A stretch of 63,917 nucleotides of DNA, the filler included, from Reclinomonas americana ATCC 50394 (lineage: Eukaryota): assembly GCA_048213135.1 (NCBI GenBank). It is 5 parts of one record of this genome, joined end to end, with 100 filler letters (N's around TTAATTAATTAA, not from the genome) between each part and the next. Parts side by side here need not be neighbours in the genome. Positions count along the whole stretch, not along the records: positions 19,096 to 38,151 come from PS015551.1; 4 more parts are not named here. One strand, 5' to 3'. A model generated the notes under the pieces. That model was not told the origin of the DNA. It did not search any database and saw only the letters and a list, made by a program, of their open reading frames with translations. Below, one piece after another: positions 3,301-54,248 of this stretch (its first letter is position 1; the number at the start of each line of letters is the position of its first letter). Both the position numbers and the translations under genes were made by a program.

Positions 3301-4993
3301 TTATGCTTTCTCGTCGCACCGTCGACCGCATCCGCAACATGACAGCCGGTCGGCAAGCGTACCTGGTGCCGGGCTCTGTTGGCATCGACACGATCCGCCT
3401 GGCAGCGGTGAGTGGCCTTGGTACTCTCCGTGCCGACGATCTGCTTGTCTTATCCCCTCTATCCCAGAAACTGGAATTGCCGATCCTCGGCCCGATGCCC
3501 GACGTGGCCGCCGTGTACGGCTCCAAGTCGGGCGCCAAGCGCATTTTTGCGGCTGCCGATGTGCTGATCCCCACTGGTGAGTCTCCTTACAATGCGTGCA
3601 TTTGATGTGCGGCAACTTACCTCTTGGTGCGTGGGACAGGCGTGGCCGATCTGTACGACGAGGAGACCTTTGTGGAGCGCCTCGTGGGCCTGTTGATTGA
3701 GTTCCCCCGTGTGCAGCGGTGGGTGTTCAAGCTGGACAACGAGTTTGACAGCCGCGGTCTGGCGTATCTCGGTGAGTGCGCACTGCTTCCTTCGTGTTAG
3801 TTCTCCAATCTCTCACCGTGCGTCGCAGATGTTGGCCGCCTCGGTAACTTGGATCACCTTCGCGATGTGTACACTTCCATGGACACGGACGAGGAGCTGC
3901 GCAACCGCACGTATCAGACGCTGGTGCAAATGGTTGGCGAGTCGCTGCCGACCATGGTCACGATTGTGACGCGCCGTGCGTACAAGTCGTGGAAGGACTT
4001 TGCGGCGGCGATGAACGACTCGGGTGCTGTCATTGAGGCGTACCCCGCCAAGCCACTCGGTTCACCATCGGTTGGCATGCTGGTGGAGCCAGATGGCACT
4101 GTGCGCATCCATTCGGTACTTCTGCAAGTCCCCGATCCCGAGTGCCCCTTCCGTGTGCCTGCCAGCTTGATGGGCAACGGCGAGTGGCCGGTGCCGTTTT
4201 CGGCACTCAAGCAGGCTTCGCTGTCGATTGCGCAGCGCTGCTTCGAGAAGGGACTGATTGGTTACATTTCCGTCGACTTTGTGGCCTTTTCTGATCTCGT
4301 TGCGTCACATGGCCACCACCACGATTCGGCCTGTTTCCACAAGGCAACTCACTTACTCTCGCCACAGTCGGAGGTGCGTTTGTGGGCTGTGGATTTGGAC
4401 ATTGGCCTGTCGTCGCGTCATGTGTGCTTCCACGTGGTGCGGACGATGACCAAGTTGCGTTGCATTGCGTCGTATTTCTTGCGTATGTCTGTATGCTTAC
4501 CTTGTCACTGCAGTGCCACGCTTGATCTGGCCACCGGCGCCCTGATTGGCCCCGGCGGCTCGTTCACGTACCTCGACCTCGGCATGATGTTCCACCCGTA
4601 CTTGAGCAGCATTCCGCACGCGCAGTTTTTCCAGTTGTGCCGCGAGAATCGCTTCGTGTTCGACACGGAAGAGGGCACGGGTCCCATTTTCCACTTGGTC
4701 AACACACTGCTCAGGGGCTGGATTGGCATCTCGTTGCGTGCACAACCCCCCTGCATGTTTGTGTGGGAACTCGTTGAGCTCATTTTCGCATTGCATACAG
4801 TTGTGTCGGCAAGTCACTGAAGCAAGTGAGCTTGCAAGCCGCCGACCTGGTAGACTTTTTGGATGTGGAACTCGCAGGTGTGACGGGCGAGCGGAAACTC
4901 GCTGCCACGAGCACCAACGTTCCTGTCATACGGCGCATCGCCTTTGCACTGGTGGAACAAGTGGTGCCGCTGAGTGCGCCACCAGCTCCATGA
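332..4993 (+). CDS. IQCH: IQ domain-containing protein H homolog (multi-exon)
   Basis: Spliced reading starts MATAPPPADSVGRLVSDVQRSLHRIRQ. It includes RTYEQLLDEFSLHHFVIRKG..ESPEF, the IQ motif AATKIQAVFRGHIIRR, SKSGAKRIFAAADV, WVFKLDNEFDSRGLAY and IGYISVDFVAF..LWAVDLDIGLS, all typical of IQCH. Introns are GT-AG; stop TGA at 4991-4993. Confidence 0.85.
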
Positions 4994-5234: not shown

Positions 5235-8200
5235 CTAATATGTGTACGAGTATTTCACCTGCGATGCGTGGCGGTGAGCGACAGAAATGCAGACCAGCGG
5301 CAATGAGGAGACGCTCACCTTGTACGGCCCACTGGCCTGCATACCGAGATGCTGGATGAGGGTGAACGCGCCAGGGAGGAGAGTGCGCGTGACCACGATT
5401 TCAGAGAGGTCACCGCCAACCACCACGTTGCTCGAGGCCTGAAAGTCCATGCAAATGTCCACCACGCGCCCTCCAACTACCTCCGCACCATAACTAAACG
5501 TGTGTCCACGCTTCGATTGGTACGTGTACAGCAGGATGCGCTGCGAGGCCTGCTGCACTCCGCGTTGGTGAATGAGAGCGGACCACGCTTGAACCATTAG
5601 CTGCGGCGCACAATAGTCAAATCACTGCCGTGCACACGCAATGACATGTCGACAACGCACAGTCGGTTCTCGCGGCATGAGTGTGCACACAAATGGATCT
5701 GTGCTGTGCACAGACACCATGTAGCATCGACTGTGGACCGAGCTGAACGAGTAGTCGTAGCCGAGGCGCGACAGGCACCACAAGACAACCGCCTGCACGT
5801 CACGCAGCTGGTGAGCAAGAGTGGCAGCAGAGGAACATGAACGGAGGGGACTGACGCACTTCGCCCTGCTGCTCCAAGATGTTGCTGATGAACTGAATGA
5901 GTCCGCGCTCCGACAATCCGCGCCGAGTGCTGCAACACCGCGGCAGTATGTGCTCCGCAAACTGCTGCTGCGAGAGAGGCTCGCCAATCATGCGCATGTA
6001 CAGGCGCGAGAACTCGGCGTAATCCAACACCTCGTCCATGTCCATGTCGTACGTGCGAAACACATCCTGCGACGCAAACTTGTGAGCGACGCAGCAGAAT
6101 GTGTGCCGCTGCTGCTGTTGCAGTCACGCAACTCGAAGTGTCGATACGAGTTCGTGGCGCAGTGTCCGATCGTCGTGCTTCAGTGTCGGTGGCACATCGA
6201 GACACGCATCGGGTATCTGTGAGCGCAACATGCATCCGGTGGTTCTGCGAGAAACAGTTCGTAAGTGAGTCGTGACTGCGGCGAGGCCGCGGTAATAATA
6301 GCAGGCACGCAACATGGGCACCACAGTGTACACGCCAGGCTCAAGGTCGCACTCCAGCTGCCACTGCCGCTCCCTGGCGGTACCGTTCTCCGCCACCACG
6401 GTCAGCGATCCGTCGGCTTCTCGTCGGAAAACCACCAGGCCACAATCGATATATGGCCGATGCACATCCACCCAAAACTCCCTCTCGTCCTCCTGATGGA
6501 TCGTCAGGTAGACTCGCGACCGCTGCAGGATCTGTGTATCGGCACGGGAAAGTGCGAATGAGTTCCCTATCTCCAACCCCAACTTTGTGATGCACGCAGT
6601 CACCTCGAGAGTGTACGACGAGCACGACACCGAGTGGTCGAGCTCGCGCTGAAACACACCCTTTAACCTGCTCTCCTGCCACTCTGGTCGCACCCTACTC
6701 GATGAATCAAATCATCAGCGCGGTGCGGACAGACAACAATCCGCAATACGTTATTAGTGACACGCAACATGCAAAACGACATTTGAGAGAATTCGACGAA
6801 GAAGTCCTCAAAGCTCATGTAGAACTCTCCATTCTCCTCCTCCACCGGCGCCAGCACCGAGCGCAATTCTGGCGTCCACAGCGGGGACGCTGATGACCAA
6901 TCGCCGTTCCTGCAAGAGAATCACAACAAATGAGGAGACAAACACCACGCGCCTCGGTCAGGTGCAAAGTGTCACAAACCACCTGTCACGACACACAATG
7001 AGTTTCGTGTCTCTGACTCGACAAGAACGCACAAGGGAGATGCGTAACTCAAAGCGACCCCACGGATTGCGCAGTCGGAGGAGACGATGACCCTCAATGT
7101 CGAACGCTGCCTGAATCGTGTACGAGTGGCCGGGGACAAGTCCACTGCCCGAGCGCGGCGTGTCGCCTTCTTCGGTAAACGTGTCCACCCCTGCCCGACA
7201 AGCAACAAGAGTGAGCCTGCATGCAAGTATTCGTGTTTCTGCGCCATCAACCACCTTTGGTCTCCGCACAACATACATCGCCGTCGCACATGCGCGTGAG
7301 AATGTGCTGCCAGAGGGCGCCACTGGCCATCATCTCTTGCGTGTGCGGATGCTCGAGCACAATGTGCTCGAACGGTGCGCCAGTGAGATCAATCAGTGCG
7401 TCACGCGAGCAACCTCGTCGTAGCTGCCATCATGCATCATCATCGATCAGACATGCGGACGACAGGGGAAAACGGAATCGGCGGGTCACTCGCGCACACC
7501 TGGTTGTAATTGCCGTGCAGTTTGGCATACGCCTTTTCCAGCAAACTTACCCACAACTGATCGTCCTGGCAGCGTGAGAAGATGAAACCACCACCTGCGC
7601 AGTCGAGCAATGAGGCGGAAAGGCCAAGTGGCGATGTGAAGAGACGAATGTAGCGTCCCGACTCACCAACGCTGCACGGAAAGTAATCGTCCACTGTCAC
7701 CGTTCGCCACTGTCCGTGTTTGGCGATTCGCATCTGCACACGCACACACACACAGATGCTCCAGTGAGCAGAACTGCAGGCGAGTGGGAGGTTGACACGC
7801 CGTCGCAAAGAGAGACCTTGTACACGCCGAGTGGATCGTACTCGTCGGTGACAAAGAGGCGTCTGATACGCTCTGGCTTTTCCGCCAGTGCGGCCACGGC
7901 GCTGAGGAACCAGCTGAATGCGATATGGTGGAAGATGGTCAGCTCCTTGAATCAACAGATGCCTGTGCAACAAAGAATGTACGTCACCAGTCGGCGAGCT
8001 TGCCCTGCATAATGGTCGACGGCTCCATGCTGGCGCCCAGAATCACCGGCTCACTGTCGCCCTTGCCCCGCGCTCGCATAATGTCCAGTGGTCTCTTCCA
8101 CTCGATAGATGAAATCTGCGTGCGTGCGACTCGACCAATGAGCAACGAGTCACATGGAAAAAAGGATGCCGGCGACCCACGCAACGCTCTTGTCACGCTC

Positions 8201-13740: not shown

Positions 13741-15429
13741 CTATTCTTCACCCATCACCACCGCCCGGAGCACCTCCATGCATCCGACCGCCGCCAGTCG
13801 CTGGTATTCCTCCTCTGAGATGGCGAACATGGAGCCGAGGAAGGCCATGGCGTTGCAGCCGAAACCAAAGGCCTCTTCGCGCTCACGAGGAATGACGAGA
13901 AGGTACTCTTTCGTCAGCAGAATATTGTACGACGGTGCGCCGTGATCAAAGTCCACTTCGATCGGCTCGTCTTCCTCGTCACGCGATTCGCCAGAGTCTG
14001 CGGGGCGTCTGCACATCAAAAAACAGTTGCAAGGAAACGGCTTGCTTGGCAGACACAAGACGCAACGGCGAGCGGTGGGGTACACAGCGAGGCGTTCGAC
14101 TCGCTTGTGGAAGCGCTTACCGCCCTCCTCTAGCCCCAACACATGCAACTCGGCCTTCAGCAGCTTGTGCAGCGCACCTGCATAGCGCATCGTCACCGCG
14201 GCATACTCTTCGCTGTTCGTCTCGCACGCCAGCACCTCGGCAGAGTAGGAGCCGATGAGGTCGGTGACATCCAACAGCAGGTGGCGGAACTTGAGCGCCG
14301 GGCAGTGCAACACGCGCGAGTGCGGCGGTCGCCACCGCGGCGACGCCACCAACCCATCCACCCCATCCGAATCGCCATCCGAATCCGAACCGGACCCGGA
14401 CGCACTGCCCGCTCCACGCGCCACACGATGCTGCCGCACAGCCTCGCAGATGAACACATGCAACGGGAACGTCGAGTGATCCAGCGGAACCATTTGCAAG
14501 TGTCGATGCGGTTGACTATGTGGCATTGGAAAGATTCATCGGTTCGCATATTTTCTGCATGCATCATCTCGACATCAAAAACAACAAGCGTACGAACCTC
14601 GGTCCCGCCTCCACGCCCTTGTTGTAAAAGATGAGCACATCGTTCGGCACGCCCTCATCGTACGCATATCGTGCAAGCGCGCTGGCAACAAAAACTTTCT
14701 TCAGCAAAAAAAAACAAAAGGGAATATGCAATCGCCTGCGAGTGACAGGGCACCTGATAGACGCCGCCGTGTCATTGACCGACAGTGGAGCACACTGCAA
14801 CTCAAACTGTCGCGTAGTGATCAGCACGTGATAGGGCACCACATTGAACTTGTTCAGCACAAGCGTGTGGTCCGGGAACGCCTCCTGCGCACACAAGTCA
14901 ACAGAGAGACAACCACTGAGAGAGAGGGAGGGAGAGAGAGGCACTCAACTTCCTCCACTGTGAGCTCGGGGTCTGGAGGGAGGAACGGATCATACACTGC
15001 GCGTCGCTCTTCCACGAGAAGCCCATCGGAGGCGGGAGAACTTTGTGTGTGTGTGTGTCAGACAGAGAGAGTGAGAGAGTGAGAGTAGACACTCACACAC
15101 AATGCACTCTCACCCGTGTCGCGTGACATCGTGCTGGCGATCCAAGTTGCTTGTCTTGCGTGGTCGCTGCGTGGCCACAGACACATTCCACTGTGCGCAA
15201 CAGTGTGCGTGTGTGTGAGAGAGTGTGTGTCTGTGTCTCTGTGTGTGTCTCTGCTCACCTCCACGCCATCTTGCGACAAGACGCGACGCTCACACGGAAG
15301 AGTGCACAGTGCACCAGTGCTCAACGCATGCTCTGCAACCTCACGCACTTGACACGCACAAAGGCATCAGTGAGAACATACTGTCTGAGTGAGTGAGCGT
15401 GAGTGAGCGCACGCACCTCGCTTCCACAT
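13741..15429 (-). CDS. ATP adenylyltransferase / Ap4A phosphorylase (Apa1/Apa2 family)
   Basis: MWKRVREVAEHALSTGAL, YDPFLPPDPEL, HTLVLNKFNVVPYHVLITTRQFELQ, FYNKGVEAGPSQPHRHLQ (HxHxQ), SYNILLTKEYLLVIPR and NAMAFLGSM. Confidence 0.9.
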
Positions 15430-18995: not shown

Positions 18996-19039
18996 NNNNN
19001 NNNNNNNNNNNNNNNNNNNNNNNNNNNNNNNNNNNNNNN

Positions 19040-19051
19040 TTAATTAATTAA
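19040..19051. other. Artificial six-frame-stop spacer TTAATTAATTAA in an N run (also at 38196, 44031, 53383)
   Basis: Identical 12-mer centred in N runs four times; marks assembly joins of unknown gap size. Confidence 0.95.
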
Positions 19052-19115
19052 NNNNNNNNNNNNNNNNNNNNNNNNNNNNNNNNNNNNNNNNNNNNGGTAC
19101 GGTACGGTCGTCGTC

Positions 19116-19173
<58 letters not shown>

Positions 19174-19209
19174 TCTGGTTGCACGACGAACTCACTTGCT
19201 GACCGGCAG

Positions 19210-20991
19210 GCCGCCGACTTCCTGCGCACGCTGCTGCAAGTGGATCCGGTATGCCGCCCAACGGCGGCCGAGGCCCTGGAGCATCCGTGGATGCGTCGCC
19301 CGAATTTGCTCATCATGTCCGGCTACTTTCGTGCCAAGGTGCGAACCGCAGGCTCTGGCTTTACCTGTTCCACTCGTCCTCATTGATTTCATGTGCCAGG
19401 AGGAGGAGGAGGACTCGATGGTCGTCGATCCATTGCACTGGGAGGGCTCGGCATCGATGAGCGCGTCGATGATGAGCAGCTACTCGATGACCATTTCACG
19501 GACGCGCGTGAATTCCGCCGACCTGCCGCCTCTGGTGCGAGAGGGAGACGACGAGGAGGCGCAGCCGTTCTTTGACGACGAAGAGCCAATGAGACCAGCC
19601 GAGGTGCGCGCACAGTGTCATGTAGTTGGCCTTGTTTTACCTCTCAATAATTTGGATTGTGGTGTGCGCAGGAGGCAGAGAGATCGCTGTTGGTGTCGGT
19701 TCGTACGCATTTGCTCACATCATGCAGCGTCTTCTGGTGACGCTAACTCACTGCGATGGCGTGTTTGCAGATCGCGGCCGTGGATGACGAGGCGTGCTTC
19801 TATTCTGCGTCGGTTGCGGATCTGCCACTGGTTTCGCTTGCCAAGGTCTGTGTGTTTGTGCGTGTCCTCCTTGTCTTCTTTCCCTCCTGAATCGCTTCAC
19901 GTTGCAGCCACCTGCGATGCGGTCACCGGCAGCCGCACAGCCTGTGCCCGTGGGAGGAGGGGCTTCCCGACCCATTCTGTCACCCACTCTCTCGGACGAA
20001 GAGGAAGTGGAGGAAAGAGCAGACAGAGTATCGCAACAACAGCAGGCGACAGCGCCAACCGCCACAGCCATCGCAGTTCCAGTGCCCGCCGCCACAGGCG
20101 CCGCTCACTCGGCCACCGACGACCGCGCTCTCACCACCACCGAGTCCTTCTTCGTGTACGACCCGACCATGATGCAGGTACCGCTGGTGCAACTAGGAGG
20201 TGCTGCTGGCGCCGGCGAGGACAGTGGTGTCGATCTGTCGTCGACAACATCACTCGTGGATGTGCCGCCGCGGACACCAAGCAAGGTGCGTGCGGTGTTG
20301 TCCGAGACAACTTGTGCCTGAAGTTGTCGTCTGAAACGGCGGAACGCGTGTTTTCTCTGATTCATCCTCGCAGGCGGGCACTGGTGGAGCGCTGAAAATG
20401 GCCTTTGTGGACGAAGATGAGTGCGACATGTCGGTAATGTCGGGTTCCCTGCAGGAGCTGTCGATGTTTGCGGCCGAGCCGGTGCCGGCCTTTTTCCCCC
20501 GCCCACCTCCGCCGCCAAGCGACAGCGAGCACGTTGTCGGCGGAGCCTCTGCGGCGGCTGCCGCAGTCCCCGACGCTCCGCGGGTGGGCATCGTGTACGC
20601 TGCGCCCTCTCCAGTCGTTGCGCGCCTCGCTGTGCTCAGACACGACGATCTCCGCTCCCCTCACTCTTGTTTCGTGTGTGTGCAGGCGAGCTCCGCCAAG
20701 TTGATCAATCTGACAGGAGACTCGAAGAAGTCACGGCGCGCGCTGGATCTGGTGGAAGACGAGCACATGGCACTGTCCATGTCGCCCGACCGACGTGCGA
20801 TGTTCGCAGACGACAGCGTCGAGGACGGCGCTTTCGCGCGCTGCAATCTCGGCTCCAGCCCGCCGACGGACGCTCGCGATCTGGGACTGGAGCCAGACGA
20901 TGCATTCGTGTTCGAGTCGGTGCTGTCGAGGAGGCAGTTGCAGCAAGACGCAACAGCCGTCGCAGCGACCGCGGTGTCCTCGGCACAATGA
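19210..20991 (+). CDS. Ser/Thr protein kinase, 3' part (subdomain XI + long low-complexity tail)
   Basis: The exon after CAG at 19209 reads AADFLRTLLQVDPVCRPTAAEALEHPWM. Further GT-AG exons run to TGA at 20989-20991. The 5' part is lost in the gap. Confidence 0.7.
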
Positions 20992-21043
20992 AAACAACGA
21001 AAAAAGAGTGTTCGATCGTCAGACAACTGTGTGTGGGAGCGTA

Positions 21044-21742
21044 ATGCTCGTCCACGCCCTCCGACGCGCTCTCCCCACACTGTGCACCACCGTTCGACGC
21101 CGATCAGCCACCGTCCTGTCATCCTCGTCATCGCCCGTCGCATCCGATCCGACAATGAACACCGCCGCTCACCTCGACCTCCTCTCACGCGCCCAGTGGC
21201 GCACCTGGCTGCAGGCCAACCACTCCACCTCCACCGGCATCTGGGCGATCTTCCCCAAGAAAACCTGCGTCCGACCCGGCGAGATCACCTACGACGATCT
21301 CATCGAGGAGGCGCTGTGCTTTGGGTGGATCGACAGTCGCCCCGGCAAGGTCGACGATCGCCGCACAAAGCTGTACCTGTGCCCGCGCAAGAGCAACGGA
21401 CGGAGCGGATGGGCGGCGACCAACAAGGCCCGCGTGGAGCGACTTCGCGCCGAGGGTCTCATGACGGATGCCGGTGAGCGCGTCATACAGCGAGCGATCG
21501 CCGATGGATCGTGGGCGCTGCTGGACAGCAGTGAAGCGGCGCAGGAGCCCGACGATCTGCGACACGCGTTGAGCGTAGAGTTCCCGGGCGCGTTGCAGCA
21601 CTGGGAGGCCTTCCCGCGCGGAGTCCGCAAAGCAATTCTGCAGTGGATTGCGTTGGCGGTGAAGGCGGAGACGAGGAGAGCACGCGTGCAGCAGACGGCG
21701 CAATTGGCGCAGCAGAACATCCGCGCCAATCAGTACCAGAAG
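21044..21742 (+). CDS. YdeI/OmpD-associated (OmdA) family domain with a mitochondrial-like presequence; intronless exon
   Basis: WRTWLQANH..GIW..KK..ITYDDLIEEALCFGWIDS..PRK..WAATNKARVERLRAEGLMTDAG..WIALAVKAETRRARV. The N-terminus MLVHALRRALPTLCTTVRRRSATVLSS is Arg/Ser-rich and lacks acidic residues. Confidence 0.85.
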
Positions 21743-21825
21743 GTGGGCGGGGGAAGTCGACATCGAGCTCGAGTGAGTCGATATCGACCTCATTTTTCTT
21801 TTTGTGTGTGTTTGAGTGAGCGCAG

Positions 21826-24065
21826 GCAAGCATGGACGTGGACGAGGTGAGCAACAGTGTGTGCGCGAGTCAGAGAGCACTGTTCTCACTCTTGTGCACA
21901 GACAAAGAAGAAGACTGGGCGCAAGCGTGTGGCCGAGCAAGACGAAGAAGAAGAGGAGGATGATTCTCCTCAACAGAAGCGCCCTCGTGCTGCGGTCAGT
22001 GTTTGTGTGTGTATGTGTATGCATAGTGTGCGTGTCATGCATCTCATCTGCTCTCCTTGTGCAGAAGCGAGGCAAGAAGGTTGCGGAGTGCAGGAGGGAG
22101 AGAGATGCGTGTGTCAAGTGACTCTCATTGTGCTGTGTGTGTGTGCGCGCACGCAGGCTGCTGCTGCGGCAGAGTCGGAGGACGACGAGGAAGAGGAGGA
22201 GGAGGAGGCAGTGAAGAAGCGCAAGGTGTTGTTGATGCGTTTCGTGTGTTGTCTCTTGTCGGAAAAATGTGACACTCTCTGCAGGCCGGCAAGCGAGCTG
22301 CAAAGCAGGGCAAGCGCGCCAAGGTACAATGTGTGCGTTTTGTAGTGCTGCTCTTGTGCTTTGCTGAGCGATTGTGTCGCAGGCGGCTGCCTCCTCGGAC
22401 GACGACGACGACGATGAAGACTATGCAGAAAAGGGCAAGCGAGGCAAGCGGGGTGCCAAGGTGCCTGTGTACGCGCATGCACTCTTCTTGCCGGCGTGAC
22501 TGACAAAGATGCAGGCCGACGGTGACGAGGTGATGGCCAAACCGGCGGGGAAGCGTGGCAAGCGTGGAGCGGCCAAAAAGAAGCAAGAGGAGGAGGAGGA
22601 TGAGAGTGGCGGTGACGACGACGACGAAGATGACGCGGGACCCAGCTCCGGTCGTGCGGTCAGCTCGTCGTGCAAGGCGGATCTGCAGTGGAAGGAGGTG
22701 GCCGACATTCCCACCAAGTGGGAGGATCTCATCCGCGCTCCGCTGTCGCCCAAGCAGATGAAGAAACTGCGGCCGACTGTGCGTTTGGCGACCCAGCCAG
22801 CTCATCTCCGCATTTGTTGTTGACGGCTGATTGTGTCTCCTGTCGGCAGATCTACACGCGACCCGCCCGCGATTTCATGCTTCCAGTGCCTTCGTTTGAC
22901 AAGTTGCGTGCGTGCTGCCGGTTGTGGTGCGTATGTTTCACTGAAAGTGGAATGTGTGCGCGTGTGTACAGGGACTCGGAACTGAAGAGTTTCGGCTTGC
23001 TGTTGCTCCCCGTCCTGCTGCATGTGCCACTCACTCACCCCTCGTCACCAACAGTCATCACCTACAATGTCAACTCGTTGCGCGGCATGATGGTGTGTGC
23101 CTCGCGGTCTCCTGTTTGTGTTTCGAGTCACTCACCTGCACCCGCAGACCAAGCGAAAGGCCGAGTTCCTGGAGCTGGTGGCGGAGGAGGATCCAGGTTG
23201 GGTGGTGGTGTGGTCGCTCGCCGCAAGTGTATGCGCGGTCGTTGTTCTCATGGTTGCTGCCACCGCAGACATTTTGTGCCTGCAAGAGACCAAGTTGAAA
23301 ACTGGCGATGTCACCCAAGAATTGCGCAACCTGCTCCCTGGTTACACGTCGTTGCGTGCTGCGCCTGCTTTCTTCAAACCAACCACACGCGATGGCGGGT
23401 CTGATCGTCGTACAGGTACTGGAGCTGCAGCACGACGACGCTCGGTTACGCGGGCACAGCGTTGCGTCTCGCACTGTCCGTGTGTTGCCTCCCGTGCTAT
23501 CGACTCATCGCCGTGCTGCCAGTGTGTTCACCCGCATCAATCCGCAGCACGTTTCGTACTCGTTCAAGTCTAAGCACGACGGGGAAGGGCGTTTCATTCA
23601 CCTCGAATTCGGCGGCTTCCATCTCATGTTGCGTCTTGTTTCTGAGCGTGACCACACCTCCCATCTGTCTCTCACTGCGTCCGCATTCGCCGACAGCAAT
23701 ACCTACGGTGCGGCGCACAGCTCCACCGCCCTCTGTTGCCTCACCACGCACTCATGTTCCCTCTCTCTCTCTCGATTGCAGTGCCGAACGCGGGTCAGGG
23801 CCTCAAACGCCTCCACTACCGCGTCAATTCGTGGGACCCAGACCTGTTTGACTTTATGAAGGAGCTCGACAAGACCAAGCCCGTCGTGTGGACCGGTGAT
23901 CTCAACGTTTCGTAATTTCTCTTCCCCACTCTTCGTCTCCTTCTCCTTCTTTCTCTCCTGTGCGGGCGCTGTAGATGTGTAGCTTCGGTCTTCCTCACAG
24001 CGTGTGGTTTGACGACGCTGCAGGTGGCTCACACAGAGATTGACATTTTCTCGCCGGAAACCAAC
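21826..24065 (+). CDS. AP endonuclease 1 / exonuclease III family with K/R- and D/E-rich N-terminal extension (3' end in gap)
   Basis: Spliced motifs [64 protein letters not shown] and [18 protein letters not shown]. Confidence 0.92.
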
Positions 24066-24740
24066 GTTTCGTGCTGTTTCTCTTTGTCAGCCAAGTTATG
24101 CGTCANNNNNNNNNNNNNNNNNNNNNNNNNNNNNNNNNNNNNNNNNNNNNNNNNNNNNNNNNNNNNNNNNNNNNNNNNNNNNNNNNNNNNNNNNNNNNNN
24201 NNNNNNNNNNNNNNNNNNNNNNNNNNNNNNNNNNNNNNNNNNNNNNNNNNNNNNNNNNNNNNNNNNNNNNNNNNNNNNNNNNNNNNNNNNNNNNNNNNNN
24301 NNNNNNNNNNNNNNNNNNNNNNNNNNNNNNNNNNNNNNNNNNNNNNNNNNNNNNNNNNNNNNNNNNNNNNNNNNNNNNNNNNNNNNNNNNNNNNNNNNNN
24401 NNNNNNNNNNNNNNNNNNNNNNNNNNNNNNNNNNNNNNNNNNNNNNNNNNNNNNNNNNNNNNNNNNNNNNNNNNNNNNNNNNNNNNNNNNNNNNNNNNNN
24501 NNNNNNNNNNNNNNNNNNNNNNNNNNNNNNNNNNNNNNNNNNNNNNNNNNNNNNNNNNNNNNNNNNNNNNNNNNNNNNNNNNNNNNNNNNNNNNNNNNNN
24601 NNNNNNNNNNNNNNNNNNNNNNNNNNNNNNNNNNNNNNNNNNNNNNNNNNNNNNNNNNNNNNNNNNNNNNNNNNNNNNNNNNNNNNNNNNNNNNNNNNNN
24701 NNNNNNNNNNNNNNNNNNNNNNNNNNNNNNNNNNNNNNNN

Positions 24741-25705
24741 CAGCAGCAGCAGCCGCCGCTGCCGCCGCCTGCTGTTCTCGCAGATACTCCTCGATTAGTG
24801 CATCCTCCTGCGCCTCCACCGCTGCCTTCTTGTCCAGGTACTCCTTCCAGATGCGCCGGCGGCGGCCAAAGATCTGTGTGTGTGCGAGAGATCCTGCTGA
24901 GGGAGAGGGAAAGAGGGAGTACGAAGGGAATATGAAGGGCAAGGACTACCTCTTCTTCCTCTCTTCACTTCTCTCGCATTCTCTTCATGCTCCTTCTGCT
25001 CCTCTCTCTTCTTCCTCTTCTCTTCTTCTTCTTCTCACTGCATTCACTCTTCTCCTCTGGCTGCATTCTTCGTGCGCTGCTTCTCTCTCCCTCTCTTCTC
25101 CTCCTTCTCCTTCTCCCCCTTTCTCTCTCTCACTGCGTGAGATGGTGAGGGAGCGAGGGAGAGAAGGAGTGAGAGGGAAAGAGCTAATGCCTTTCTCTCT
25201 CTCTCTCCCCTCTTCTTCTTCTCACCTCTCTCACCTTGTGACTGCATTCTCTTCGTGCTCTTTCTGCTTCTCCTGCATTCTCTTCATGCTCCTTCTGCCC
25301 CTCTCTCTCTCCCTCTTGCTCCTTCTCTTCTCTTCTTCTTCCTCTTTTCTCTACTCTTCTCTCCCTCTCTCTCTGCCTCTTCCCACGACCTGCATCTGCG
25401 TGGAAGATGCAATCTCCGCGGACTTGCTGATTGATTCACTCACATCAAATGCCGAGTAGAGACCATATCCAAAGCCAACGAAGCTGCCAGCGGCGATAGT
25501 GCCAACTGTGTGTGCAAGTGTGTGTGTGTGTGTGTGTGTGTGAGAATGTGTGAGAGAGAGTGTGTCAAGAGAGAGAGAGATGCGAAACTGCCGAGCTTGA
25601 ACAGAATGCCCGTCTGGACAGCTGCGTTGAGGTGAGTGAGTGAGTAAGAGAGTGAGAGAGAGAGCACAGTGTGCACACGAAACGATCGGGTCCAAAGCGG
25701 CCCAT
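24741..25705 (-). CDS. Small single-TM protein, possibly cytochrome c oxidase subunit COX6C/Cox9/plant COX5C-like
   Basis: Exons 25705-25684, 25621-25589, 25505-25444, optionally 25395-25390, and 24873 downward give MGRFGPDPVQTGILFKLGIGTIAAGSFVGFGYGLYSAFD(MQ)IFGRRRRIWKEYLDKKAAVEAQED. The family call rests on pattern resemblance only. Confidence 0.45.
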
Positions 25706-25906
25706 GGTTGTGCAAGAGAATGAGTGTCCTGCAAAGTCGCAACTTCGCAGGAGTGACAAGCGAGAAAGAGGAGGAAGAACAAGAAGAACTGCAGTTGGTG
25801 AGTGAGGCTGTATTCATGCGTGAGGCTCGACGACGATGAGTGCAAGTGGAATTCAGCGACAACGAAGCGCAGGACATCGTTCTCAACTCTCGTCCGTCAT
25901 TGCGCC

Positions 25907-38151: not shown

Positions 38152-38272
38152 NNNNNNNNNNNNNNNNNNNNNNNNNNNNNNNNNNNNNNNNNNNNTTAAT
38201 TAATTAANNNNNNNNNNNNNNNNNNNNNNNNNNNNNNNNNNNNNNNNNNNNGTTCATCCTTTCTTGACGCAG

Positions 38273-43986: not shown

Positions 43987-44086
43987 NNNNNNNNNNNNNN
44001 NNNNNNNNNNNNNNNNNNNNNNNNNNNNNNTTAATTAATTAANNNNNNNNNNNNNNNNNNNNNNNNNNNNNNNNNNNNNNNNNNNN

Positions 44087-52200: not shown

Positions 52201-54248
52201 GCACTGCACCAATGTCCGTCTGTGATGGAGGTGATGGGCGGCCTGGCACAGTTCCTCACCCGTCAGTGTGTTACGCTTTGTGGCACCGATGATCGGCTGC
52301 TACAGTGGCGATACCACTTTCGCCTTCCGTTTGTGTTGGACCAGCTGCGGCGCGTCAGCGTTCCGGCAGTCGTGAGCTCGCTGACCGACGACGATCAACG
52401 AGCATGGGTGGAGGTCACCTTGCACTGTGTGCACACAATGGCGAATGGCGCGGGCATGTGGCCTTTGGCGCCGGCATGTCTCACCAAGTACATTCAATCG
52501 CGCGCGTCAGCGGCGCTGTCAATTCCGGCTCCTGTGCAGGAACTGCTTGTGAAACCAGTGTGGATATGCGGCTTGCTTGACCGCCTCAAGGAGAAGGAGG
52601 TGGCTCTCTGGCCATTGGTGACGCAGATCATGCGGACTCGCGATGCTCGACTGGGTTGCGTGAGCAATCTCCGTTTTGTGATCCTTTCATGTCTTCTCAC
52701 TCGCTCACTCTGCAGTGCGAGGTGACGTTCGGCAGCGCATCAGCGAATTGGTTCGCATGCAATACCAGGAACTGTGTTGCGAATGCGAGAGCCGTTCTGA
52801 CGCACTTGCGGCGGCCATGCACATCAGCAGTCATTCCATCTGCCAGCTTGCCGAGCTCCTTGTGGTTTCCAAGTACTTGTTCTCCGCTGCGCACAATCGC
52901 GAGTGGACGCAACTGATGCTGCGCACGGTGCCGCTCAATTCGCCCTCCAAAGCGAGAGCTGGCGCGGATCAGCGATGCAGTCTTGGGTTCGCCGCGCTGC
53001 ATGCCGCTCTGTCGCACAAGGATTCGATGCCGGCGTCTGATGCGGAGGCCGCCGACCAGTACCTGTTTTCTCTGGTCGGCGCACTGGTGGAGGCGCTTTC
53101 GTACACCGGGCCTGGTATGCGGGGAGGGAGAGGGAGAGAGGGAGAGGGGGAGGGAGAGGGAGAGGGAGAGGGAAGGGAGAGAGGGAGAGGGAGAGGGAGT
53201 GGGAGAGGGAGAGGGAAGGGAGAGAGGGAGAGGGAGAGGGATATAATGAGAAGGAGGGGACGAGAGAATTGAAAACGGAGAGGGAAAAGAGTGCAGGAGA
53301 CACGAACATGATACACCACTGTCAAAGGTGATAGAACGNNNNNNNNNNNNNNNNNNNNNNNNNNNNNNNNNNNNNNNNNNNNTTAATTAATTAANNNNNN
53401 NNNNNNNNNNNNNNNNNNNNNNNNNNNNNNNNNNNNNNAAAGACGGGCGTAGGCGAAAGAGAGCAAAACGTCACCAGCGTAGGTGACTGTATTCTCGATC
53501 TCTTGTTTTGCGTACTGAGTTGCGTATTCTTCGTGCAACCAGGCACGGCGCTCATTGATCTCGGCCTTGTTATCGACTACGTGGGCACACCGATGCTGGA
53601 TGTTGTGCGTGCTATGAACGAAGCAGCGAGGCTTTCTCGTCGAGGTATGTGTGCGCTCGCACGCGTGTGTGTCACGGTGTTTCACCGTTTTTTTCCACAG
53701 TGCGGTCCCGTATGTGGCTCTTGCTGCGATGTATTCTCGATCCGGCAGCCGGTCGACGGCGCCAAGTAGACGAGTACCTGAACATGAGAGTGCCCAACTC
53801 GCGGCCATTGTGCGATCACACCGAGCAGATGCATGTCTCGGAGGTGCTTGGTCGTGCCTGTGCCGATGAGCTGGAGGAAGAGGAGGCGCATCCTGGTGGC
53901 CTCGACGTGGAGGTGCTGAGTGCGATTCTGTTTCTTCATGCGCCGTCGCATGCCGATCGCGAGGAGGCTGATTTGCAGCTTGCACTGCAGCAATCGATGC
54001 TGTCATTCGACGGGTATGAGGATCAAGATGACTTGGGTCGTGTGGCCTATGGATTTGTTGACGATGTGATGATGGAGGAGGAGGAGGAGGAAGAGGAGGA
54101 GATGGAGGTTGAGTTTGAGTTTAGTGATGATGACGACGGTGGTTCAGAAGGGGAGAGAGAAGTGGAGGAGGTGGAGGTGGAGGAGGATGAGGAGGAGGAG
54201 TTCATCGCTGATAGGTCACCGGTTGCATCAGCGGAGTCAGTTCGATAG
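49209..54248 (+). CDS. F-box + helical-repeat + UIM-like + acidic tail protein, paralog A (spans a spacer inside an intron)
   Basis: Spliced F-box LPVEIIGV|ISSFLDIDDDFPRLWRTSQGF; repeated L.AS.P..V..L...QRAW motif; EEADLQLALQQSML; poly-E tail. Confidence 0.7.

Follow-up and report, generated by a model that had tools for sequence, protein, structure and literature searches.

A bacterial-type YdeI/OmdA reading frame as a putative 5′ coding exon of an AP endonuclease gene in Reclinomonas americana

Immediately upstream of an apurinic/apyrimidinic (AP) endonuclease gene of Reclinomonas americana ATCC 50394 lies an intronless open reading frame (ORF) for a protein of the bacterial YdeI/OmdA family, and the question raised by this locus is whether the two are separate genes or parts of one. 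We examined them in a stretch of 63,917 nt from assembly GCA_048213135.1 (the window), along the whole of which positions are counted; the locus lies in the part from 19,096 to 38,151, which comes from PS015551.1. The window DNA is eukaryotic in character (GC ~0.58, dense short GT-AG introns). Judging from the sequence, we lean somewhat towards the reading that a horizontally acquired YdeI ORF was captured as the 5′ coding exon of an AP endonuclease (APE) gene with two starts. The features on which the argument draws are these:

20989..20991, plus strand: stop codon (TGA) of the upstream gene, which has a kinase-like C-terminal tail; 52 nt before ATG 21044
21044..21154, plus strand: 37-codon extension MLVHALRRALPTLCTTVRRRSATVLSSSSSPVASDPT, presequence-like, absent from bacterial homologues
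21155..21742, plus strand: YdeI/OmdA domain (DUF8412 + OmdA), M38 to K233, intronless, collinear with bacterial proteins of ~197 aa
21743..21825, plus strand: candidate intron i1, 83 nt, phase 0 (AAG/gtgggc...cctcat...tttttcttttt...gcgcag/GCA)
21773..21778, plus strand: alternative in-frame donor GTGAGT (53-nt intron, 10 extra residues; local-matrix score -1.6 bits)
21826..21846, plus strand: exon 2, 21 nt (ASMDVDE), containing ATG 21832-21834
21848-21850, plus strand: TGA that first closes the YdeI frame if it is not spliced, past the downstream ATG 21832
21902..22778, plus strand: exons 3-8 (93, 15, 69, 39, 78 and 264 nt), ~190 residues rich in Lys/Arg and Asp/Glu, with clusters resembling a nuclear localisation signal (NLS)
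22850..24063, plus strand: exons 9-17, ExoIII/APE1 catalytic domain with the motifs YNVN, LQETK, NTYVPNAG and GDLNVAH
24106..24740, no strand: assembly gap of 635 N, which removes the C-terminal third of the APE domain

A bacterial-type protein with an N-terminal extension

The intronless ORF from ATG 21044 encodes the 37-residue extension followed by a full bacterial-type YdeI/OmdA protein. Residues 167-224 matched Pfam OmdA (E 1e-12; 48.2 bits, cut-off 25.6), and the protein was assigned to the YdeI family in the Atlas with a score of 0.94; NCBIfam gave no match for it. A word-indexed protein search returned 2039 relatives of 128-408 aa. The best of these were ~197 aa long, 55-62% identical over 80-90% of the query, and bacterial or metagenomic in every case bearing a name. 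No orthologue above 62% identity was found in any collection searched, and exact look-up of three variants of the ORF in a protein collection found none of them. In the alignment, the bacterial proteins start at the position of M38, the original bacterial start Met that is still present here, and stop 0-10 residues beyond the position of QYQK. All 26 family-invariant columns of a 60-sequence alignment are kept, as are 29 near-invariant columns, and the AlphaFold2 (AF2) model built from that alignment has a predicted local distance difference test (pLDDT) score of 96. The domain is basic (isoelectric point, pI, 9.6; family median 9.1).

The protein is thus of the same length as bacterial YdeI proteins (PF13376 + DUF8412; COG4430-type, YjbR/CyaY-like superfamily), collinear with them and alike in its invariant residues. 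The bacterial proteins stand alone, whereas the Reclinomonas form carries the extension, has lost its own stop and sits in a eukaryotic scaffold. A stand-alone form of ~200 aa with its own stop was not found at the locus: the first stop lies 35 codons past the end of homology. The horizontal, bacterial-type origin of the ORF, which an earlier note on this DNA had proposed, is evident from the Pfam match and the homologue comparison. Because members of the family occur in many bacterial phyla (confirmed at 529 loci in species genomes, best 56% identity), the donor lineage cannot be named.

The extension resembles an organelle presequence by a crude criterion, residue counts rather than a targeting prediction. 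It contains five Arg, its first acidic residue is at position 35, its first 25 aa hold no acidic and five basic residues, and its hydrophobic moment is ~0.6 at the N-terminus. A plastid transit peptide or a translated leader would account for the peptide just as well, and the mitochondrial destination given in the earlier note is unproven. A further donor, GTCCTG at 21113 (codon 24 of the presequence; 3.6 bits), is in frame with the acceptor at 21825. Its use would bypass YdeI and lead from the presequence directly to APE; at 713 nt, however, such an intron would greatly exceed the others (54-147 nt).

The junction with the AP endonuclease gene

The spliced model is a chain of 17 exons (21044..24063) that stays open for 1833 nt, or 611 aa, without a stop and then meets the gap at 24106. 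All 16 modelled introns are GT..CAG, 54-147 nt and A-poor. Model residues 446-611 are 49-53% identical to APE homologues (BLASTP, E ~1e-54), and a hidden Markov model (HMM) of 54 APE homologues matched the spliced model at E 2e-74. Single APE exons fall below the Pfam Exo_endo_phos cut-off (19.6 and 15.9 bits versus 24.5), and the best PDB match of the largest was the chloroplastic ARP of Arabidopsis (8ka3; E 4.6e-12). A homologue search with an APE ORF query that held intron-derived residues gave no match. We take the four motifs listed above to carry catalytic residues (Asn/Glu/Tyr/Asp-Asn) of the N-terminal two thirds; the expected positions of the C-terminal catalytic Asp/His fall inside the N gap.

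Exons 3-8, with introns i2-i7 of 54-77 nt, rest on the exon model and not on homology. Exon 3 opens with TKKKTGRKR from 21902. Since these K/E-rich exons, as read from the exon model, contain no in-frame ATG besides 21832, the APE ORF must start at most 89 nt from the YdeI domain. An 11-nt microexon at 23697-23707 (CAATACCTACG) is required to read the conserved NTYVPNAG, and a 15-nt exon lies at 22065-22079; with such microexons elsewhere in the gene, the 21-nt exon 2 is unremarkable. An unusual 5′ splice site, GTTGCG(T), recurs in 4 of the 16 modelled introns (at 23351, 23461, 23628 and 22080), GTTTCG is the donor of i16 (23907) and follows exon 17 (24064), and the classical GTRAGT is rare in the gene.

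At the junction itself, the YdeI frame reads ...NIRANQYQK and ends at AAG/GTGGGC (21742/21743). Homology to YdeI ends at QYQK (21742), and the ancestral stop has been lost. After the CAG that ends at 21825, GCA AGC ATG GAC GTG GAC GAG (21826-21846) resumes in phase 0. These coordinates, together with ATG 21044 and the stop at 21850, agree with the earlier note, as does its phase-0 resumption into the APE exons, which the open 17-exon chain and the ExoIII/APE1 match bear out. Read without splicing, the frame continues for 35 residues. That many stop-free codons beyond the domain is an unremarkable run, and the GC content at third codon positions (GC3) falls at 21743 from 0.83 in the YdeI domain to 0.40 in the tail, which is non-coding-like. 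This drop indicates that coding ends at the donor.

To score the splice sites we used matrices built from the other 15 introns of the same gene. The donor at 21743 scored 7.1 bits, which ranks it first among 42 GTs in 21044-21850 and within the top 1.6% of all GTs across the window. Donors of the real introns span -1.5 to 8.3 bits (leave-one-out), and 21743 falls in the upper part of that range. The acceptor at 21825 scored 6.5 bits, second of 53 AGs in the region and within the top 4.4%. The pattern AAG/GT...CAG/GCN in phase 0 is the same in i4-i7. By eye, i1 has a branch-like CTCAT ~34 nt before its CAG; in each of the other 15 introns, CT[CG]A[CTG] lies ~11-33 nt before the corresponding CAG. 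The A content of i1 is 0.17, compared with 0.08-0.22 in the other introns and 0.37 in the true intergenic spacer 20992-21043. The site quality of i1 exceeds chance; the frame match alone does not. Taken together, these properties suggest that the YdeI exon is probably spliced in frame onto the APE gene.

Other observations on this segment are as follows. Two perfect palindromes lie within i1, TCGAGCTCGA (21763-21772) and GTCGATATCGAC (21777-21788). We considered i1 as an introner-like repeat and rejected this, as no similar copy was found within the window. An exact 23-nt scan of metagenome contigs with the end of exon 1 gave no match. The corresponding 21-nt scan with exon 2 hit two loci, L081 and L082, by a 22-nt match only, and both were set aside as unrelated chance matches.

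One gene or two

If the YdeI ORF is a captured exon, the bacterial gene now stands between an organelle-type presequence (21044-21154) and a second start, ATG 21832. Transcripts from upstream of 21044 would lose the 83-nt intron 21743-21825 and yield a long product, presequence-YdeI-(K/E-rich linker)-APE, of at least 611 aa with its end inside the gap. A short product from ATG 21832, arising by a downstream transcription start or by internal initiation, would be free of presequence and YdeI, begin with the NLS-like basic clusters and be nuclear. Intron retention would give a stand-alone YdeI ending at TGA 21850. The splicing of i1, the two isoforms and their destinations are inferred. The gene has two in-frame starts, one followed by the presequence-like extension (ATG 21044) and the other by KKKTGRKR-like basic clusters (ATG 21832), both recognised by the same crude criterion.

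The N-termini of APE homologues bear on this arrangement. From 1.84 billion representatives we collected the 150 nearest APE-like proteins (HMMER; 54 of at least 250 aa, 20 of at least 400 aa). Of these, 23 looked full-length, with Met1 and 60 aa or more ahead of the core motif; in 10 of the 23, the first 25 aa hold no acidic and at least two basic residues. The order presequence, internal Met, basic stretch was seen by eye in at least seven homologues (P0137, P0187, P0201, P0203, P0244, P0261 and P0263), and the window gene has the same order of elements, with YdeI and an intron between presequence and Met. Plant and protist ARP-type AP endonucleases share with it the catalytic domain and a long basic/acidic N-terminal region, and many have an N-terminal targeting peptide; the plant-type SAP motif, present by eye in P0142, P0143 and P0178, was not seen in the window gene. 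The two isoforms suggested in the earlier note fit this pattern of the homologues.

UNG1/UNG2 is a one-gene case of dual targeting. Dual nuclear/organellar targeting of nucleic-acid enzymes by alternative starts is also reported for human ELAC2/RNase Z (PMC3084753), and dual targeting by alternative starts in a genome-wide survey (PMC3575844). Such enzymes resemble the gene modelled here in having a long form that bears a presequence and a short form that starts from an internal Met, with basic clusters at its N-terminus. The Reclinomonas gene, known here from sequence alone, differs in having ~196 foreign folded residues and an intron between the presequence and the second Met. The simplest history on this evidence would be that the bacterial ORF landed in the 5′ part of an APE gene that already had two starts. 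The more specific proposal, that YdeI was inserted in the first exon or intron of a dual-targeted APE gene, so that an organellar form carries the basic YdeI (pI 9.6) and a nuclear form does not, is tentative, and we hold it with more doubt than confidence.

Several observations weigh against capture as an exon. ATG 21832 is in good context (A at -3, G at +4), its upstream frame is closed by a TGA 12 nt 5′ of it (21817-21819), and there is no ATG within 21743-21831. In-frame open GT-AG pairs of at least 45 nt numbered 4 of 18 at the YdeI-APE junction, which is chance level; at a control junction, between the upstream gene and YdeI, they numbered 45 of 130, and the best in-frame pair there was fair-scoring (donor 4.1 bits, acceptor 5.9 bits). 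The splice matrices rest on only 15 introns of one gene, and the highest acceptor score (11.2 bits) belongs to a site at 21214, within the conserved coding part of YdeI, which shows that the matrix yields false positives. If a single base were wrong in the G5 run (21749-21753), a stop would appear at 21772-21774. The codon-position signal of the extension is weak (GC3 0.68, with other frames similar). Only 52 nt separate the end of the upstream gene from ATG 21044, which shows that distinct genes can pack this tightly here. Finally, a YdeI domain was found in 0 of the 150 nearest APE representatives (hmmsearch, E <= 10), and Exo_endo_phos in 0 of the 3 long (409-2000 aa) YdeI-containing proteins.

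The control acceptor merits a separate remark. This acceptor-like site at 21022 (ttcgatcgtcag/ACA, 5.9 bits) is 22 nt before ATG 21044 and pairs in frame with a donor of the upstream gene at 20920 (103 nt), a pair that we used as the chance control. The same acceptor could conceivably close an intron of the 5′ untranslated region or take part in a longer fusion.

Several of these points also speak for the main alternative, two separate and tightly packed genes, which we judge unlikely. YdeI, with or without the presequence, would end after a 35-residue junk tail at TGA 21850 or at a stop hidden by an indel, and APE would start at ATG 21832 from a transcription start in 21743-21831; the GT..CAG would be coincidental or a minor read-through splice. 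The 52-nt spacing shows that such packing occurs here, which weakens the claim of the earlier note that two separate genes fit poorly, and the chance rate of in-frame GT-AG pairs removes the frame match as an argument for fusion. The relatives of YdeI are mostly stand-alone (2039 at 128-408 aa versus 3 at 409-2000 aa), and none of the APE homologues examined carries YdeI. Two genes would require a terminator or poly(A) site plus a promoter within 89 nt, or overlapping transcripts from the same strand, and the YdeI stop would sit inside an APE coding exon or intron. The tail with its GC3 of 0.40 is non-coding, and donor and acceptor rank at or near the top locally. A de novo presequence on YdeI would also be needed, and APE would be without the presequence found in many of its homologues. 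For the capture of YdeI as a 5′ exon, proposed in the earlier note, the likeness of i1 to the other introns speaks in its favour; the in-frame join by itself is at chance.

An improbable reading takes the YdeI ORF as a recent functionless insert in the 5′ leader or promoter of APE, perhaps transcribed and intact because it is young. The ORF is intronless within a gene that has about one intron per 90 nt, it has no orthologue above 62% identity in the collections searched, and its original Met (M38) is still there. Set against this are the conservation of all invariant and near-invariant columns and the confident AF2 model. The lost stop, the strong donor at the domain end and the in-frame presequence-like extension suggest adaptation after the transfer. 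Furthermore, an upstream ORF of 233 codons would cripple APE translation unless it were fused or bypassed.

Even less probable is a three-gene polycistron resolved by spliced-leader (SL) trans-splicing at 21022 and 21825 into separate YdeI and APE mRNAs. The acceptor-like sites are suitably placed, 22 nt before ATG 21044 (5.9 bits) and 6 nt before ATG 21832 (6.5 bits), the same-strand spacers are very short, and the window has a long run of plus-strand ORFs. This reading fails because YdeI has no stop before 21825: its frame is open through the acceptor to 21850, and a separate YdeI mRNA would have no stop codon. Rfam and tRNA scans of the 64-kb window found no family at threshold, including SL RNA, and no tRNA, a weak point against trans-splicing. 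An assembly artefact, in which contaminating bacterial DNA (a read or a contig) was stitched into the scaffold of a eukaryote, is scarcely credible. In its favour, the scaffold is a draft with 17 N runs in 64 kb, and YdeI is intronless and 55-62% identical to bacterial proteins. But 19096 to 24105 is free of gaps, so that the ORF is contiguous with eukaryotic intron-rich genes, and the flanks are eukaryote-like on both sides (the coding end of the upstream gene on one, intron-like sequence and then spliced exons on the other). Moreover, no bacterial gene flanks the ORF, its stop codon is absent, and no bacterial sequence is nearly identical to it.

Surroundings, function and meaning

The frame of the upstream gene has a GC3 of 0.73-0.77 until about 20920. 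Beyond the gap, an open frame follows at once on the minus strand (24741-24945; ...EYLDKKAAVEAQEDALIEEYLREQQ, poly-Ala), so the 3′ end of the APE gene must fall inside the 635 N. Farther downstream, 24950-25400 is a long stretch of low complexity rich in CT, and (CT)n and (GT)n microsatellites are common throughout the window. The four 100-base joins (18996-19095, 38152-38251, 43987-44086 and 53339-53438) each consist of 44 N, TTAATTAATTAA and 44 N, resembling an all-frame stop linker of the sort that an assembler puts in, and the sequences flanking them need not truly adjoin. Other genes in the window are:

3801-4817, plus strand: IQCH-like ATP-grasp gene (E 1.5e-22)
7443-8042, minus strand: calpain gene
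13744-14535, minus strand: Apa2-type ATP adenylyltransferase gene
25802-27034, plus strand: WD40 protein gene

The IQCH-like gene suggests a host with a flagellated or ciliated life stage.

The earlier note had also seen in this locus a hint of a DNA-repair role for YdeI. A PDB sequence search with YdeI gave nothing below E 0.37, and with the model as query Foldseek found no PDB structure at E <= 0.001. A wide VIA-align search reached only Z <= 7.0, confined to residues 1-84 and to a common alpha/beta sandwich arrangement (Alba, IF3-C, Smr, SepF and TusA-type folds); the helical C-terminal half was not searched alone. Around 80 bacterial YdeI loci we scanned 150 of the 151 nearest-neighbour ORFs, and 0 of the 150 had Exo_endo_phos. 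Repair-type neighbours occurred once each, namely UDG (L014), 3-methyladenine glycosylase/Tag (L043), RecA (L075), a RecF/SMC-like protein (L030) and HerA (L034); the remaining neighbours were heterogeneous, with no conserved link. The three longer YdeI forms are fused to metallo-beta-lactamase, HAD or membrane segments and not to a nuclease. The literature matches listed under YdeI and OmdA concerned a Salmonella/Vibrio periplasmic protein or were unrelated, and among them there was no eukaryotic YdeI and no YdeI-nuclease fusion; COG4430 had no literature match. The combination of OmdA with Exo_endo_phos, for which the earlier note had called for a search, is not conserved among the proteins searched. 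The bacterial gene neighbourhoods thus lend the proposed repair role no support, and a coupling of YdeI to base-excision repair would follow from this one possible fusion alone.

Gene fusion after a transfer is a known kind of event, and so is dual targeting through alternative starts. Were the two genes separate, the locus would simply hold a gene of horizontal origin wedged between two genes of the host and would be of modest interest. If the fusion is real, a foreign bacterial gene would have come to be expressed and targeted in an intron-dense eukaryote through exon capture, and by such an insertion an acquired gene would gain a promoter, a targeting signal and a poly(A) site in one step. 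A fusion would also tie the functionally uncharacterised YdeI/OmdA family to an AP endonuclease and provide a testable functional lead. Should the dual-targeted insertion prove true, it would be the first architectural hint that the YdeI/COG4430 fold may act on DNA or in base-excision repair.

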